From the IMG/VR virus record IMGVR_UViG_3300045988_145476: a stretch of DNA of 64,000 nt; one strand, 5' to 3'. The notes beneath the pieces are model-generated. The model was not told the DNA's origin and did not search any database. It was given only the letters and a program-made list of their open reading frames with translations. A program made the position numbers and the translations under genes. This DNA is from a virus. Shown in pieces: positions 3,991 through 21,657 of the stretch (its first letter is position 1; the number at the start of each line of letters is the position of its first letter).

Positions 3991-4253
3991 GAATTGCTCC
4001 TATACCCACCTCTCTTATTGCAGCCATAGAAAAGTGTTTCTTGTTCAAGTGCAATGTAGAGCAACACGACCTCTTTGTCGTTTCTCAGACTATTCCTTTC
4101 CCTTACATTTCTTAGGTGATTGTTCACTGTATGCGGAGAAATACATAGCTTCTCTGCAATTTCCTTTTCTGTATAGCCTTGCGCTAATAATTCCACAGCT
4201 CTTAATTCAGATGTAGAAAATGGCGTTTTTACGCTATTGGTTTGATTTTTCAT
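3939..4253 (-). CDS. LuxR/GerE-type helix-turn-helix transcriptional regulator
   Basis: 'TSELRAVELLAQGYTEKEIAEKLCISPHTVNNHLRNV' matches the GerE/LuxR C-terminal HTH signature. This is the only convincing minus-strand gene in the window. Its 3' end overlaps the 3' end of 3619-3990 by 52 nt. Confidence 0.75.
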   Translation of the reverse strand: MKNQTNSVKTPFSTSELRAVELLAQGYTEKEIAEKLCISPHTVNNHLRNVRERNSLRNDKEVVLLYIALEQETLFYGCNKRGGYRSNSYPTKRLRIYKTVFVIR

Positions 4254-6119: not shown

Positions 6120-6560
6120 ATGATTAATGTAACGCCTATTGCTATTGCGGCTACCTCACAGCAGTATGCAGTGAGTATAACCGAGAACTTGTGCCAATGC
6201 TACTGCTTGAACGCAGACATTCAGCCACAAGCAGATGTGAAGTTCTCCATTGCTTCACAGCAAGTTGTTAATGGAATGACCTACATCACCGTTCTCGCTA
6301 AGGGTAGTATTACCTATATGCCGAGAAATGCGGGTAGATGCTGCTGCAAACCTCTTACAAAGATGTTTGCTGAAACATTCGATATTATCTTCGACACAGC
6401 CGAAACCGCAGCTCCGACACTTACTGTTGGAACTACCGTTGAAAGTCCGGCAAATGTGAAGTGTAATGGGAATGTGTTCGCTTACAACTTATTGACACCC
6501 GTAACCATAGCTTTTGCGGCTACTCCCTCTGAGGCTGCGGTTGCGAAGACTAATAAGTAA
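6120..6560 (+). CDS. hypothetical protein with CQCYC and CCC motifs
   Basis: 146-aa ATG ORF containing 'LCQCYCLN' and 'GRCCCKP'. Confidence 0.5.
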   Translation: MINVTPIAIAATSQQYAVSITENLCQCYCLNADIQPQADVKFSIASQQVVNGMTYITVLAKGSITYMPRNAGRCCCKPLTKMFAETFDIIFDTAETAAPTLTVGTTVESPANVKCNGNVFAYNLLTPVTIAFAATPSEAAVAKTNK

Positions 6561-13344: not shown

Positions 13345-13522
13345 AAAAGAATATCAGGAACACTGCAAGCATAGCCCCTACAGTGGGCAATGCTACAAAA
13401 AGTCATTCATATCGGGTGTAGCAAACAATGTGCATGTGAACATGCGGTGTGACGGGAAATGCCCCCGTATGAGTAATTACGACAAGAGAAATAAATTAAA
13501 TAGCCTTGGACGGGCTTTGTAA
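13337..13522 (+). CDS. small Cys-rich hypothetical protein
   Basis: 61-aa ATG ORF. Confidence 0.4.
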   Translation: MNRKEYQEHCKHSPYSGQCYKKSFISGVANNVHVNMRCDGKCPRMSNYDKRNKLNSLGRAL

Positions 13523-13535
13523 AATCCATATTGAT

Positions 13536-14252
13536 ATGAAAAAGTATATTGGAACAAAAGAAGTTGAAGCAATGCCTATGACACTGGGTGAGCTTATCAA
13601 CAAAAGCGGTCGAAATCCGTATGAGAATGACGAAAAGATGCACGGTAACGATGAAAAAGGTTATCTTGTGAAGTACAAGGATGGTTACGAAAGCTGGTCG
13701 CCTGCCGAACCGTTTGAGGAAGCATATAAATGTGCAGATACATTCCTTGACCGCTTGCATATTGAAATGCGGGATTTATATGAAAAGATGGATAAGCTCT
13801 CTCCATTTATTGAATCTGGCAAAATAGATGAAATTGTGACTGACAAATATCAGAACTATTTGCTTCGGTTGCAACATAGAATCATGAGCAGGTATATCAA
13901 TGTATTGGAATGCCGTATTGGTAGGCTTGATGGAAGTCCCGAAGCACCTTTACATCAAATGTCATTTGGTGATGCTATTGAAGTTCTCAAACAAGGTGGT
14001 GCTATCCGTAGAGCTGGATGGAACGGTAAAGGGTTATTTGTTGTTAAGCAAATTCCGGCTCATATCACCGAAGACATTATTCCTAAAATGCAGTCACTTC
14101 CCCAGTCAGCCAAAGACATCATTATGTCCCGTGAGAATAAAGTAATTGACTACACAAGTCAAATGCTTATTATTAATCCGGACGGCAGGGCAGATTCATG
14201 GGTTCCGTCTGTCAGTGACGTGTTCGCAGAAGACTGGGAGATAGTTATCTAA
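13536..14252 (+). CDS. two-domain protein with a C-terminal DUF2829 (Tad2-like) domain
   Basis: I prefer the ATG at 13536. The C-terminal 'MSFGDAIEVLKQGGAIRRAGWNGKGLFVVKQ' matches the DUF2829 signature (F.eAl.alk.Gkkv.R.gWngkg). The N-terminal 'IGTKEVEAMPMT...GYLVKYKDGYESWSPAEPFEEAY' is a recurrent phage domain. Confidence 0.6.
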   Translation: MKKYIGTKEVEAMPMTLGELINKSGRNPYENDEKMHGNDEKGYLVKYKDGYESWSPAEPFEEAYKCADTFLDRLHIEMRDLYEKMDKLSPFIESGKIDEIVTDKYQNYLLRLQHRIMSRYINVLECRIGRLDGSPEAPLHQMSFGDAIEVLKQGGAIRRAGWNGKGLFVVKQIPAHITEDIIPKMQSLPQSAKDIIMSRENKVIDYTSQMLIINPDGRADSWVPSVSDVFAEDWEIVI

Positions 14253-14291: not shown

Positions 14292-14699
14292 ATGAATATT
14301 ACTATTAAAACAAGACAGATTCTATTCAGAGGAAAAAGTATCGGTGATGGACGTTGGGTTATCGGTGATTTATTTCACAGAAAGGGTGTTCCCTCACCAT
14401 CTATTACACCCACGCAAATCGGTACTTCGGGTGTCGTTAAGGAAACGGTGGGACAATTTACCGGCGAACGGGACATTAATATGACAATGGTCTACGAGCA
14501 TGACTTGCTTAGAGTTCCCGAAACGTTATCCAACGCAGAGCTTCTATGTGCCGTTACATTTAAGTTCGGACGTTACGTGGGAATCTCCGTATCGTCCAAT
14601 ACGACTTGGGATTTGGAATACCTTTTGCACCTTAATGCGGTTGTAGTGGGAAATATCCATGACAATCCGGATAAGGCTCCTAACTTTACAATAGAATAA
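14292..14699 (+). CDS. YopX-family phage protein
   Basis: 'ILFRGKS...GRWVIGDL', 'ETVGQFTGERD' and 'VVVGNIHDNPD' match the YopX pattern (FRg...g.WvyG; TvGQyTGlkD; evIGNIhdNPEL). Confidence 0.7.
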   Translation: MNITIKTRQILFRGKSIGDGRWVIGDLFHRKGVPSPSITPTQIGTSGVVKETVGQFTGERDINMTMVYEHDLLRVPETLSNAELLCAVTFKFGRYVGISVSSNTTWDLEYLLHLNAVVVGNIHDNPDKAPNFTIE

Positions 14700-17665: not shown

Positions 17666-19003
17666 ATGGCTTCAAATGAAAAAGACTCTCCGATTAGTCT
17701 ACTTGAAACTCTATCGGAAATTGATGGTAACTTGGAGTATTTTGCGGTCGCTAAGGACGGGACTACCTATAAATGTACTCCCGCCCAATTAAAGGATTTT
17801 GTACTGAAAGGCGAAACTCCAGTGGTTCGCATACCTTTAGCGGTATTGAACTTGAGCAATTCTTCAAGCAGCGAGGATATACTCAACGCTTTTGGCGGTA
17901 AGGAAACTTTCATCGCCCTTTGTGAGAAAATCTATGGCAGGGATGTGGTATGCGTCTGTCAGGGTTTTGCCAGTGATGATGATGAAAACATGAAGACTGG
18001 ATATGTAACGCAGGCGATTTCCTGCAAGCATATTGACGCTGAGAACGCAATACTCATGTTCCTTATCAACATAGACAACGTTTCCCACCGGCTTATGATA
18101 AATTGCGTGGACGGTACGGCATCATTCTCCAAGACTACGGTGGATGATGCCAGTGTTATTTTGCTCCCCGATGATGTGAACAGTATTGAACAAAATTACT
18201 CGTCCAAACAGATATTTGACGCTTTTGGCGGTAAGGATGCCTATAACGGTTACGTAAGCAAAATCACCCAGAAGTCGGTTATAAAAATCGGAGATGCTTT
18301 ATATGCCGTTTCACAGGTGTTAGGTTCTTCCTATACCGACGAAAACAATAGCCAGTTAGTCGTGCAGACCATTGCTATGAACGTGATAAAGTACATACAG
18401 GTTACTGTAACCGGCGGTACCGCAAAAGCCATTGTCGGGAAATGGGACGTCGTTGACGCTGAGAAGATACTCACCAAAGACAATACGACCGCTTATACTC
18501 CGACCAATGATTATCATCCCGCTACGAAGAAGTATGTGGATAATATCAATTATGGTAAGGTTATTAACGTTTCTGTGGGCACTTATCTTACTACCAATAA
18601 AAACGAAAAAGACAGGGAAGCAATAGACCTTATAAATACCATTTTTGGTTCGGTTGATAATCTGAAAGAAATAATCCAGGATATTATAGCGAACCACACC
18701 AAGTATTATTTTCACAGTTATAATAGCAAAGATAATTGTATTGAACTTAGTAGCATTTACTCTTTTCACAACCCTGAAACTGAAGAATATAACTTGCAAT
18801 GCAATATCAGTTATTATACTAATAACGGTCCTGTTTCCAAGCGTATGGGATTTAAACTAATGCCCAATGATGAAGACTGCGCTGCCTCTATAGAAGATAT
18901 ACTCACTTCCGATAATCTACAAAGAGTTGTTAAACGTACTAAATCTGAATACGATGGTATTGGTATTAAAGATAATTCTACAATGTATGCAATAACTGAA
19001 TAA
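17666..19003 (+). CDS. tail fibre / receptor-binding protein
   Basis: 'TPTNDYHPATKKYVDN' matches the common fibre motif (..d.aaTKgYVD). There is an internal duplicated segment: 'EDILNAFGGKETF' and 'KQIFDAFGGKDAY'. Confidence 0.6.
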   Translation: MASNEKDSPISLLETLSEIDGNLEYFAVAKDGTTYKCTPAQLKDFVLKGETPVVRIPLAVLNLSNSSSSEDILNAFGGKETFIALCEKIYGRDVVCVCQGFASDDDENMKTGYVTQAISCKHIDAENAILMFLINIDNVSHRLMINCVDGTASFSKTTVDDASVILLPDDVNSIEQNYSSKQIFDAFGGKDAYNGYVSKITQKSVIKIGDALYAVSQVLGSSYTDENNSQLVVQTIAMNVIKYIQVTVTGGTAKAIVGKWDVVDAEKILTKDNTTAYTPTNDYHPATKKYVDNINYGKVINVSVGTYLTTNKNEKDREAIDLINTIFGSVDNLKEIIQDIIANHTKYYFHSYNSKDNCIELSSIYSFHNPETEEYNLQCNISYYTNNGPVSKRMGFKLMPNDEDCAASIEDILTSDNLQRVVKRTKSEYDGIGIKDNSTMYAITE

Positions 19004-19015
19004 AAATTCAAAGGT

Positions 19016-19395
19016 ATGGATAGTAATTTAAAAGTTGGTTCTAATAATGCAGGATTGTTTGTTGGTAATATTGAGATATTAGGGGGATAACAGTTGATTA
19101 TGAAGATGGCTTCTTTAATGATAATGGTTCGGCGTGTATTATAGTTAATAATTCGCAAGAAACTAAATCTTTTAATATAGATAATAATACAGTTAATGTT
19201 GCTTCAAATAGTATTTCCTTTTTATATAGTTATTCCAATTGGAAAATATCTACTAATACAGATATTATATATGATTTTCGTTTTGGCGATGCTGATAATG
19301 GAGAAGCTAATGATACTATTACAGCAAAGGCAAATGATGTATTATTTAATTTTACTGGTTATGGTTCTTATTTAGTTTTAGTAATAAAAGAATAA
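19016..19395 (+). pseudogene. frameshifted small gene, interrupted at a G5 tract; paralogue of 19407-19868
   Basis: From the ATG at 19016 there are 24 codons to a TAA at 19088. The -1 frame is open from 19087 to the TAA at 19393-19395. One extra G in the 19082-19086 run, or a -1 slip, would give one ORF of about 126 aa. Confidence 0.5.
19082..19086 (+). repeat. G5 homopolymer at the frame break
   Basis: Read directly: TTAGGGGGATAA. Confidence 0.95.
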
Positions 19396-19406
19396 ATATA
19401 ATTGAT

Positions 19407-19868
19407 ATGGATAAAGATACGAAAGATATTAACGGGGGGGGGGTAAGAGTAGGTATAAGTAATACGAGTATTCGTATTGGAAATCAACTTATTGCTGGCA
19501 AAGAATTTGATATTAAACAACTTGTTGATAATATTATATTTGCAGATGATTTAGTACATAAAGAAATTAATGGACAACTTGTTCTTATTTGCAATCTTAG
19601 TAGTATCCCTATTTATTTATATCGAGATTCAGTAAGAATTGAAATAAAAAAACAACATATCGAATGGTATTCATTTAGAGCACCTACTGCTATTAGTCTT
19701 TTTAATGAAGATAATACTCCAATAAGAGCTATTACACAAAAGGAGTCTATATCCAATAATTTTGTTATAGAAATAACTGATTCTGTCGTTAATAATGGCG
19801 ATAGTGTATTTGATATTGCAGATAGTACAGGGATTTTCGGTTTGGTTTGTGTTCTAATGAATGCGTAA
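19407..19868 (+). CDS. hypothetical protein with a G10 tract in codons 10-13
   Basis: 153-aa ATG ORF. The tract encodes 'NGGGV'. It lies in a very AT-rich context downstream of the fibre genes. Confidence 0.55.
   Translation: MDKDTKDINGGGVRVGISNTSIRIGNQLIAGKEFDIKQLVDNIIFADDLVHKEINGQLVLICNLSSIPIYLYRDSVRIEIKKQHIEWYSFRAPTAISLFNEDNTPIRAITQKESISNNFVIEITDSVVNNGDSVFDIADSTGIFGLVCVLMNA
19434..19443 (+). repeat. G10 homopolymer inside a coding region
   Basis: Read directly: AACGGGGGGGGGGTAAG. Confidence 0.95.
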
Positions 19869-19912
19869 AACAATAATATTAATAAAATAACAAAGTGTTT
19901 ACTTTTTTGATT

Positions 19913-20356
19913 ATGAGAGTAAAAGTATTTTATGAGAATTGGCTCGCTAAAGCCATTCTGTTCAAGAACTACGGTACGATGATGTTCTTTGGTTTCATCA
20001 TTACCAAACATGCAAGTTTGCCTATTGAGGCACAACGTGAGGAGCGTATTCATCAGCTCCAGTTCAAGGAATGTATGGAAATTGCTACGATACCGGCGGT
20101 TTTCCTTTCTCTGTATGTGAGCTGGTGGTGGATGCTTCTTATTCCCACCTTGTACTATATAATGTACGGTGTGGAATGGTTTATCAGTTTTATATATCAT
20201 TTGTTCAAGGACAAACAAATCGGTGATGGGAAAGTGAACGCCAATGCCTATTATGCAAGCGCCTTTGAAATGGAAGCTAAGGAGAACCGGAACAGCCAGA
20301 TTTATCTGCGTTTCCGCAAATGGGGGGCTTGGTTCAAATATTACGGGAAGTTATAG
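19913..20356 (+). CDS. membrane protein
   Basis: I prefer the ATG at 19913 over the GTG at 19895. Hydrophobic segments GTMMFFGFIIT and IPAVFLSLYVSWWWMLLIPTLYYIMYGVEWFISFIY. Confidence 0.5.
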   Translation: MRVKVFYENWLAKAILFKNYGTMMFFGFIITKHASLPIEAQREERIHQLQFKECMEIATIPAVFLSLYVSWWWMLLIPTLYYIMYGVEWFISFIYHLFKDKQIGDGKVNANAYYASAFEMEAKENRNSQIYLRFRKWGAWFKYYGKL

Positions 20357-20361
20357 GAGCG

Positions 20362-20393
20362 TTTGCAATATTGCGTAGTATTTCCTATATTTG
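20362..20393 (+). promoter_or_regulatory. consensus Bacteroides-type promoter (TTTG-N20-TAtaTTTG)
   Basis: TTTG at 20362-20365 and TATATTTG at 20386-20393, 20 nt upstream of the folE ATG. Confidence 0.6.
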
Positions 20394-20413
20394 TATATCA
20401 AACTTAAATCATT

Positions 20414-21088
20414 ATGCTGGACAAATCAAAAACGGACCCGAAGTTAGGTAGGGAAATCCACCAACTTCTACATGACACAGGAATCGAAACCCCTATGATA
20501 GACTCAACGTTTCAGACCGAATCTGAAAAGTTTACCGCCATACGGGACAGCTTTAAGACTATCATGCAAACTCTTGGAATGGACTTGACCGATGATAGCC
20601 TTTCGGAAACCCCAAATCGTATTGCCAAGATGTACCTCAACGAAATATTTTGGGGTCTTGATTACAACAACTTCCCGAAAGTAACCACCATAGACAATAA
20701 GATGCAGTATAATTCCATGCTGCTGGAAAGAAACATAAAAGTTTCTTCATTCTGTGAGCACCACTTTGTGAACTTTGTAGGCAGTGCGTATGTTGCTTAC
20801 ATCCCGCACGGGAAAATAATCGGTTTGTCAAAGATAAACCGCATTGTTGAGTTCTTCTGCCGCAGGCCACAAGTGCAGGAACGCCTGTGTGAACAAATAT
20901 GGGCGGCTCTCTGCCATGTACTTGAAACCGAAGACATTGCCGTTCTTATTCGTGCAGAACATTTCTGCGTTAAGTCAAGAGGAGTTGAGGATATTAATTC
21001 CGATACGGTTACTTCCCGTTTGGGCGGTTTGTTCTATGACAGTGAGCAAAGGGACGAGTTTTATAAGGTACTCAACTTTGGTGTATGA
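20414..21088 (+). CDS. folE: GTP cyclohydrolase I
   Basis: 'SFCEHHFVNFVGSAYVAYIPHGKIIGLSKINRIVEFFCRRPQVQERL' contains the FolE hallmark motifs CEHH, GLSK and RPQVQERLT. Confidence 0.9.
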   Translation: MLDKSKTDPKLGREIHQLLHDTGIETPMIDSTFQTESEKFTAIRDSFKTIMQTLGMDLTDDSLSETPNRIAKMYLNEIFWGLDYNNFPKVTTIDNKMQYNSMLLERNIKVSSFCEHHFVNFVGSAYVAYIPHGKIIGLSKINRIVEFFCRRPQVQERLCEQIWAALCHVLETEDIAVLIRAEHFCVKSRGVEDINSDTVTSRLGGLFYDSEQRDEFYKVLNFGV

Positions 21089-21657
21089 AAGGATTTACTC
21101 TGATTGATAACGTATGGGTGGAGAATAGAATATTTCCCACCTATTTTTCTTGTGACTATGACAAGTGTAAGGGAGCGTGCTGCTGGGCTGGTGATGCCAA
21201 AGATTATGACGGTGGTACATTGCTCGCCGAGGAAGCTCAGGAAATACTCCTTAGAAAAACCGCTCTCTCTCCGTTCACGAGTGAAGACTTGCGTAGTATT
21301 GCCGAGAATAGTCCAGTATATACCCGTAACGGCGGCATTTACACGAAACTTCATTCTGACGGTAGATGCGTGTACATGAACGGAAAAGGATGCGCATTGA
21401 AAGACGCATGTGCTGCTGGAAAACTTTCATTCGATATTCCCGTTTATTGTCAGTTGTACCCGTTATGGGTGAGTGAACATTCTGACGGGAACATGAAGCT
21501 TTTCTTGGCTGATTCGTTCGAGGAGTTCTGCCGGCCCGCCTTTGAAAAGGGGCTTCGTGATAAAACAACTCTGTTACAGTTTTGCCGGATACCACTAATA
21601 AGATTTTTCGGTGAACCTTTCTACCAGACCTTATTCAATATGGTTACTCAAGAATGA
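21085..21657 (+). CDS. Cys-rich DUF3109-like protein
   Basis: ATGA-coupled to folE. 'FSCDYDKCKGACCWAGD...GGTLLAEEAQEIL' and 'DGRCVYMNGKGCALK' resemble the Bacteroidota DUF3109 / CxxCxxCC-type family, from memory only. Confidence 0.45.
   Translation: MKGFTLIDNVWVENRIFPTYFSCDYDKCKGACCWAGDAKDYDGGTLLAEEAQEILLRKTALSPFTSEDLRSIAENSPVYTRNGGIYTKLHSDGRCVYMNGKGCALKDACAAGKLSFDIPVYCQLYPLWVSEHSDGNMKLFLADSFEEFCRPAFEKGLRDKTTLLQFCRIPLIRFFGEPFYQTLFNMVTQE

Follow-up and report, generated by a model that had tools for sequence, protein, structure and literature searches.

The question raised by this locus is whether poly-G tracts near the starts of two adjacent small phage genes serve as a genetic switch or are instead to be read as marks of gene decay, of recombination, of a frameshift corrected in expression, or of sequencing error. 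The locus spans positions 19016 to 19868 of IMG/VR virus record IMGVR_UViG_3300045988_145476, a stretch of 64,000 nucleotides (nt) that is referred to here in its entirety as the window, and its two genes are designated gene A and gene B. The window represents a crAss-like phage (Crassvirales) of Bacteroides whose nearest relative is Bacteroides phage BS162P1, which was isolated from sewage on B. salyersiae, with the flanks sharing 97 to 99% identity between the two phages; parts of two large upstream genes match the Delmidovirus genome cr11_1. From the sequence comparisons described below, the region is probably a slipped-strand contingency locus of the phage, composed of tandem paralogues that follow a tail fiber gene.

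All features of the locus lie on the plus strand. Gene A starts with an ATG at 19016, and its leader open reading frame (ORF) (19016..19090) runs for 24 codons, encoding MDSNLKVGSNNAGLFVGNIEILGG with the N-terminal motif of the family, before a frameshift cuts it at a stop codon at 19088-19090. The sequence at this point reads TTA GGG GGA TAA, so that tract A (19082..19087) consists of a G5 run at 19082-19086 followed by an A and is out of frame (OFF), at the exact position where relatives carry G6 to G11. The -1 frame opens at 19075, only 13 nt ahead of the leader stop, and continues to a stop at 19393-19395; it contains the intact gene A body (19087..19395; 102 codons plus stop), which is without a start codon of its own and shares 94 to 96% identity with the bodies of full-length homologues. 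Insertion of a single G yields a 126-amino-acid (aa) protein, and an identical leader is fused in frame to bodies in homologues P0121 to P0198. Gene B (19407..19868; 153 aa) is in frame (ON) and encodes the leader MDKDTKDIN, three tract-encoded glycines, the motif VRVGISNTSIRIGNQLIAGKEFD, and a predicted beta-sandwich body. Its tract B is a G10 run in codons 10 to 13 (19434..19443), for which relatives carry G7 to G11, an interrupted GGGGGAGGGG, or G6AG7. At G9 or G12 gene B would meet an immediate stop, while G8 or G11 would shift it to a frame that opens solely at a TTG (19402..19404; +1 frame) located 5 nt ahead of the ATG of gene B. Some relatives (e.g., L086) have an ATG in place of this TTG. 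A preliminary description of the window had placed the ATG, both runs, the open frame to 19395, and the in-frame state of gene B exactly, and had correctly predicted that one extra G fuses the 19016 ORF to the downstream frame.

The G10 run of tract B is the sole G/C run longer than 6 nt in the 64-kb window. Dinucleotide shuffles led to an expectation of 0.03 G/C runs of that length, with 3 of 100 shuffles containing one, and outside tract B no G/C run in the window reaches 7 nt, against approximately three expected 7-mer matches. The G5 run alone is ordinary, as 11 are present in the window, but it occupies the position at which relatives have G6 to G11 (and products of G13 length as well). 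Independently of the tracts, it was observed that positions 19001 to 20000 form the kilobase of lowest GC content in the window (28%, compared with approximately 40% elsewhere) with strong positive GC skew, a composition that fits a cassette swapped among phages.

Related loci were gathered using the conserved gene downstream of gene B (19895..20356, with a probable ATG at 19913), which served as the anchor for 80 related loci, both leader sequences (in IMG/VR and metagenomes), and exact-protein look-ups. The anchor gene, which has a weak PHROG match annotated "protease," lies outside the putative switch. Across 32 distinct related alleles, the shortest and longest forms were G5 and G11 for tract A and G7 and G14 for tract B. 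A set of 21 contigs, most of them assembled from short reads of different samples with SPAdes or MEGAHIT, are identical over the approximately 850-nt A-to-B region when the tracts are masked and carry eight tract combinations, namely G7 or G10 at tract A paired with G7, G8, G9, or G10 at tract B. Similarly, lengths differed by 1 to 3 nt between genomes with no flank mismatches; L091 and L111, for example, have 0 mismatches in 1,500 downstream positions and a tract A of G10 and G7, respectively. Thus, no other position mutates nearly as fast as the tracts. With respect to the canonical ATG, the alleles include ON, alternative-start, and OFF states, and each OFF allele retains an uninterrupted body of 102 to 149 codons. 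A comparison of tract lengths across isolates and metagenomes, which the preliminary description had suggested as a check on its proposal of a phase-variable switch, therefore returned the pattern expected of slipped-strand switching, with lengths that vary on identical flanks, mixed ON and OFF states, and intact bodies. The fused product of the 19016 ORF, also predicted there, is encoded as a full-length protein of 126 to 128 aa in hundreds of contigs. Gene A homologues number 78, and two of them, P0128 (126 aa, G7, 101 contigs) and P0144 (127 aa, G10, 156 contigs), are one glycine apart.

The cultured phage BS162P1 carries three small genes at this locus, each with a G run. Its gene 1 has the 22-aa leader found in the 19016 ORF of the window and an in-frame G9 (ON), followed by a wholly different body. 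Gene 2, the homologue of gene B, has an out-of-frame G9 (OFF) and has been annotated solely from an internal ATG; the isolate forms plaques and is viable with gene B OFF. In gene 3 the ATG is preceded, at a distance of 10 to 17 nt, by the G8 run, which stands at the end of a short upstream ORF. This third paralogue type (BS162P1 6458-6500) was also observed in L083, L086, L088, and L150, in each case with G8 to G9 outside the ORF and 10 to 17 nt upstream of the ATG; the short upstream ORF encodes MKSIMKLRSKYIWGGG.., and stops occur in all three frames beside the ATG. A tract in this position might leave the reading frame alone and instead adjust translational coupling.

A few alleles have interrupted tracts: GGGGGAGGGG in L090, which is synonymous and in frame; GGEG in P0152; and the G5+A of the window, an allele shared in identical form with L083, L105, L107, L118, and L096 and thus seen in at least five independent assemblies. 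All five G5+A contigs have tract B at G10. Judged from their sequences, such interruptions would lock the tract state. In the window, then, gene B is read as ON (G10), and gene A is read as OFF and should be nearly locked, with reversion rare, because its tract has been shortened and interrupted. The earlier proposal that the 19016 gene is switchable accordingly survives in that its tract is real, and does not in that the copy in the window has decayed. A G6+A tract that is in frame is present in L150 and L151; in these, an (AT)4-to-(AT)5 expansion at approximately position 1730, within a gene A body of the L083 type, frameshifts the gene despite the in-frame tract. A second repeat was also noted in gene B, where an A7 tract (19646..19652; codons EIKKQ) is A6 in many assemblies, giving 94-aa truncated products (approximately 25 protein clusters, P0087 to P0111; L141 to L146, from six samples). 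The A6 alleles occur mainly in a leaderless lineage without poly-G, and the site could represent either an additional, weaker switch or a knockout that has arisen repeatedly.

The start region of gene B reads TTGatATG in the window and ATGatATG in alleles of the L083 type, and gene-caller products from the alternative start begin MIWIKIRKILTGG.. and LIWIKIRKILTGG.. (P0007 and P0012). At G8 or G11, initiation at the alternative start would yield a full-length gene B protein with a different 10-aa leader, which would leave only G9 and G12 wholly off, although the open frame may be due to chance. An ATG in an alternative frame is also found inside the gene A leader (aataATGcagg; P0174). The idea that at least one paralogue is always ON was tested and is not claimed here; a trend was apparent (10/15 versus 7/17) but was not significant once duplicates were removed (Fisher P = 0.18).

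A relationship between the N termini of the two genes, as put forward in the preliminary description, is borne out by several comparisons. A profile built from gene B homologues alone had the gene A leader ORF as its best non-self match (E = 0.0038) among 1,727 ORF segments of the window, and a profile-profile comparison of A with B gave an E value of 1.4e-4 across 67 columns; direct pairwise BLAST of gene A against gene B was weak (E = 0.037). An intermediate N terminus was found in L084, and in chimeric proteins (P0195, P0197, P0221, and P0223) the gene A leader is joined via a G run to gene-B-like bodies. Taken together, the profiles and the intermediate sequences show genes A and B to be paralogues. 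Among 1.84 billion representatives, the small gene B family accounts for 51 clusters at 50% identity, and its members are 175 aa or shorter, save for one marginal match of 802 aa (E = 7.6e-4). Wherever genomic context was inspected, they lay in crAss-like phage loci. The shared layout is a conserved N-terminal motif of approximately 20 aa followed by a predicted beta-sandwich of approximately 100 aa, the distal part of which is variable.

In the AlphaFold2 (AF2) model of gene B (mean predicted local distance difference test [pLDDT] score of 76.7), residues 1 to 19 are disordered and two short helices accompany a beta-sandwich at residues 56 to 152, while the model of the gene A homologue P0121 has a beta-sandwich at residues 39 to 124 with a pLDDT of about 90. 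Both models therefore have 20 to 30 low-confidence N-terminal residues and end in a confident beta-sandwich of approximately 90 to 100 residues. Pfam and PHROG scans of genes A, B, and C matched no family, including known tail fiber chaperone and gp38-like adhesin families, and PDB sequence searches with the fiber, a 458-aa protein, and the gene B profile gave zero matches. Foldseek searches of both models against PDB and BFVD returned only generic beta-sandwich matches, with template modeling (TM) scores below 0.45; the weak matches include streptococcal pilins and aegerolysin/Cry34-like proteins, from which no function was drawn. An Rfam scan of positions 18500 to 20500 had no match, and a sigma-70 promoter/terminator scan was uninformative, as the DNA is AT rich and the model is not one of Bacteroides or phage promoters.

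Most homologues are single copy, start right at the motif (MLKIGELTSGLFAGDKLIAGKEFD... or MLKIGELTSG...), and have no G run; these leaderless genes sit 12 nt after the fiber gene. One such ungated copy is present in 37 of the 80 loci collected with the anchor gene, and tracts are confined to multicopy arrays, with copy number across the relatives ranging from one to three. As homologues without a leader also lack the tract, the leader is dispensable and leader plus tract form an add-on. At least five unrelated short hydrophilic leaders were identified (MDKDTKDIN, MESNLKMENVDVYNNM, MDNQNDVALANTVD, MNKEENKIAAFSV, and MDNKVKMLNM), and all five end in a Gly run just before the motif, whereas in the gene A type the run stands just after it. 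Across the related loci (955 kb), G/C runs of 7 nt or more number 11, and 9 of them are at this family. The phage cr110_1 has two tandem copies with a G7 run each, and in the complete 98-kb genome of cr114_1 all four G runs of 7 nt or more fall within 2.6 kb at the homologous locus. Additional members in cr114_1 and cr4_1, both Suoliviridae, have tracts that differ in length between the two genomes (G7 versus G11 and G9 versus G8) with a change of frame. These poly-G-gated members lie at 4017, 6137, and 6548 in L148 (cr114_1) and at 4017 and 6133 in L149 (cr4_1), some of them in unannotated gaps; both RefSeq genomes read TAG as a sense codon. A G10 run was also noted approximately 30 nt upstream of a fiber-like gene in cr114_1.

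The gene that precedes gene A (17666..19003; 445 aa) matches Pfam Phage_tail_C at residues 425 to 444 (E = 6e-5). The position after a fiber gene that the preliminary description had reported is thereby confirmed; a LamG gene, which it had also named, is not, the gene before the fiber gene having no LamG match at an E value of 0.1 or below. In Pfam and PHROG scans of the two fiber-like genes, Phage_tail_C on the fiber was the sole match. The last approximately 30 aa of the fiber form a conserved tip motif (SDNL..V.KRTKSEYDGIGIKDNSTMYAITE), and the C-terminal motif SDNL..TK.T..EY..I..KD..T.Y..TE is common to otherwise differing fibers of Intestiviridae and Suoliviridae. The same fiber C terminus is followed by a family member in BS162P1, cr11_1, cr110_1, cr114_1, cr4_1, and L098 to L101. 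Family members were always found directly after a fiber gene with this motif, usually 11 to 12 nt on, as in the window, BS162P1, L098 to L101, L120 to L139, cr114_1, and cr4_1. In relatives the locus lies between fiber genes and holin/endolysin genes and, once, beside a gene for a Baseplate_J-like protein. On different contigs of a single metagenome assembly, GCA_027494185.1 (L098 to L101), an identical 142-aa leaderless protein (P0072) follows fiber genes of 280, 332, and 518 aa, in which the middle is swapped while the C-terminal tip and the small gene are constant. The N-terminal motif is a putative docking segment, and the genomic context suggests that the family proteins may be virion components that affect adsorption or host range; decoration of the capsid is an alternative to a role at the fiber tip.

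For a capsid role, the head fibers gp21 (trimeric) and gp29 (dimeric) of crAss001 offer a point of comparison, being proteins of 97 to 122 aa with an N-terminal anchor and a C-terminal domain that in gp29 is a beta-sandwich (Bayfield et al. 2023, PMC10172136). The gp29 gene is located between tail fiber and lysis genes, as is the gene B family in its relatives, and the AF2 models suggest a similar small anchor-plus-domain layout, although their fold matches are generic. Unlike genes A and B, the crAss001 genes are without poly-G in the sequence examined. Homology to these head fibers is not supported by sequence comparison: hhalign of A1 gave a probability of 4.6% against gp29 (E = 0.0088, 22 columns), with probabilities of 0.1% against gp21 and 0.3% against the cr11_1 "head fiber" gp50, and the profile had no PDB sequence match.

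Under the reading preferred here, each copy in a multicopy array would be gated by poly-G placed between a short leader that supplies the ATG and the functional protein, with the gene A variant having its tract just after the motif. Slipped-strand mispairing during replication of the phage DNA would add or remove a G and so bring the body into or out of frame, and in some alleles a slip would instead place a second start codon in frame with the body. As the change would be both heritable and reversible, the progeny of a burst could carry differing sets of accessory proteins. The reading further supposes that switching takes place inside populations at a useful rate.

Several observations weigh against this reading. 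Contigs of fully identical sequence usually share their tract lengths (the 7,8 state is repeated in eight contigs), and the consensus state is therefore fairly stable. Both copies are OFF in some genomes (L004/L104), so the proteins must be dispensable at least at times. Further slips disable gene B (A7 to A6) and gene A of L150 ((AT)4 to (AT)5), and the ratio of nonsynonymous to synonymous polymorphism (pN/pS) among the G5+A gene A bodies is 0.6 to 0.9; like the both-OFF genomes, these also fit relaxed constraint. The association between the ON and OFF states of A and B loses significance on removal of duplicates (Fisher P = 0.18), and the proteins have no sequence match in Pfam, PHROG, or PDB and only generic Foldseek matches (TM below 0.45).

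Much of this would be expected if the tracts were neutral mutational hotspots in dispensable, decaying genes and the OFF alleles incipient pseudogenes. The both-OFF genomes L004/L104 agree with such a view, as do the degenerate G5+A tract common to three divergent bodies with pN/pS values of 0.6 to 0.9, the extra frameshifts at A7 and the (AT)n repeat, and the near-even distribution of gene B frames when gene A is ON (7 ON, 6 alternative-start, and 4 OFF). Against decay stand the recurrence of poly-G at one and the same junction, following five or more unrelated leaders, in two Crassvirales families and in genomes that otherwise avoid G runs, and the leaderless single-copy homologues that mark leader plus tract as an add-on, and not one stop codon occurs across the 102 to 149 AT-rich codons in any OFF allele; neutral decay is thus regarded as unlikely. 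A lower probability still is assigned to the idea that poly-G is mainly a recombination joint or a flexible Gly linker between a docking leader and exchangeable bodies, with length variation as a by-product. In favor of a joint, one gene A leader is connected via the G run to four body types, including gene-B-like ones (P0186, P0188, P0195, P0197, P0221, and P0223), and immediately beyond the tract the window and BS162P1, which have the 22-aa leader in common, diverge wholly. A linker, however, does not need a homopolymer in the DNA. Interrupted synonymous versions occur but are rare, and out-of-frame lengths are common; a joint is compatible with the contingency locus and does not replace it.

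Correction of the frame in expression, by programmed -1 ribosomal frameshifting at GGGGGA-TAA or by slippage of RNA polymerase on the G run, would yield the trans-frame product ...EILGGITVDYEDG... and might be entertained since no more than 13 nt separate the opening of the -1 frame from the stop, the stop codon follows directly after the run, and G runs of 9 to 11 could permit transcriptional slippage. However, A GGG GGA departs from the canonical X XXY YYZ heptamer, and the 83 nt downstream fold like shuffled sequence (z = -0.06), which leaves the preliminary suggestion of a -1 slip, taken as programmed frameshifting, unsupported. Relatives encode the protein in a single frame and frame states vary freely with no conserved shift, making this explanation very improbable. 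Runs of G9 to G11 are error prone on several sequencing platforms, and errors of sequencing or assembly in the homopolymers, including the G5 frameshift, had been named from the outset as an obvious alternative. The same lengths recur in independent assemblies (G5+A in at least five contigs and the 7,8 state in eight); random homopolymer error is therefore ruled out, also for the G5 of the window. Length differences of up to 3 to 4 nt (e.g., G7 versus G10/G11) are accompanied by flanks that are 100% identical, T5 runs included, and the contigs are mainly short-read SPAdes or MEGAHIT assemblies, so that of all the explanations weighed, error is the hardest to credit.

A broader proposal, which we put forward tentatively and consider more doubtful than sound, is that Crassvirales in general possess a leader/poly-G/body system beside their fiber genes. 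Such a system could make a stochastic choice among interchangeable beta-sandwich proteins, either fiber-tip adhesins or capsid decorations, with two-frame starts giving graded states and the tract serving as a joint for cassette exchange.

Elsewhere in the window, the ORF at 13506-14252 is a candidate anti-defense gene, with a Tad2-like Thoeris anti-defense domain (PF11195, E = 1.7e-19) fused to a domain related to crAss001_48 (E = 7e-15), and a YopX-domain protein is encoded at 14292-14699. Genes for GTP cyclohydrolase I and an Rv0495c-like protein, recognized with Pfam via their L102 homologues, are present at 20414-21088 and 21085-21657, respectively.

Among the viruses of the human gut, crAss-like phages rank first in abundance. 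As summarized in PMC12823448, Bacteroides hosts evade them by phase-varying their capsules and surface proteins (Porter 2020; Shkoporov 2021). Full-text literature searches retrieved no account of Crassvirales phages having a heritable random switch of their own, and searches for BS162P1 and for crAss with poly-G or homopolymer found nothing relevant. If the contingency locus is confirmed, bet-hedging by poly-G of the type seen in Campylobacter phages would extend to the main group of gut phages; were the system general in Crassvirales, it would be a phage counterpart of capsule phase variation in Bacteroides and help to explain long-term coexistence. With three tracts in a cultured phage, BS162P1 makes the idea directly testable. 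There are also practical consequences, in that annotation pipelines miss or truncate OFF alleles, as with the BS162P1 gene B called from an internal ATG and the gaps in cr114_1 and cr4_1, and strain tracking based on insertions and deletions will misread tract sites.

Phase variation is known in kind from phages of Campylobacter, and what is new here is a probable locus of this kind in a crAss-like phage. In Fletchervirus phages of Campylobacter, genes for receptor-binding proteins carry G7 to G11 tracts (Sorensen et al. 2021, Cell Rep 35:109214, as cited in bioRxiv 10.1101/2025.10.21.683753 and PMC12823448). The similarities are that G runs stand in the 5' part of several genes of a host recognition module and that their length shifts the frame, with the result that the phage population is mixed, while the host phase-varies its own surface. 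The differences are that Fletchervirus is a myovirus group, whereas the locus described here belongs to Crassvirales, with a host of another phylum and an apparently unrelated, unannotated protein family, and consists of small tandem paralogues with a shared putative docking motif and the tract at the leader/body junction. BPP-1 and PB1-like phages are likewise reported to have poly-G tracts, and in T2 and T4 contingency loci with homopolymer runs undergo reversible frameshifts that have been read as bet-hedging, while runs of 6 nt or more are underrepresented in tail fiber and other infection genes of coliphages (bioRxiv 10.1101/2025.10.21.683753). Compared with T2 and T4, the runs identified here are longer and are concentrated beside fiber genes.

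Bacterial contingency loci include the poly-G genes of Campylobacter and Neisseria and lic1 of H. influenzae, which has start codons in two frames. The crAss-like locus resembles these in the proposed slippage of a repeat in the 5' coding region, and its second-frame start could likewise give three expression states; it differs in residing in a lytic phage genome that is replicated by a phage polymerase. Other phages vary their fibers by different means, such as the invertible fiber segments of Mu (Gin) and P1 (Cin) and the diversity-generating retroelement of BPP-1 (as cited in PMC12823448), and they require dedicated enzymes to do so. By analogy with these, the locus would provide stochastic and heritable variation of a fiber-associated specificity module within a phage population, and where they employ site-specific inversion or mutagenic retrohoming, it would depend on homopolymer slippage, for which none are needed.

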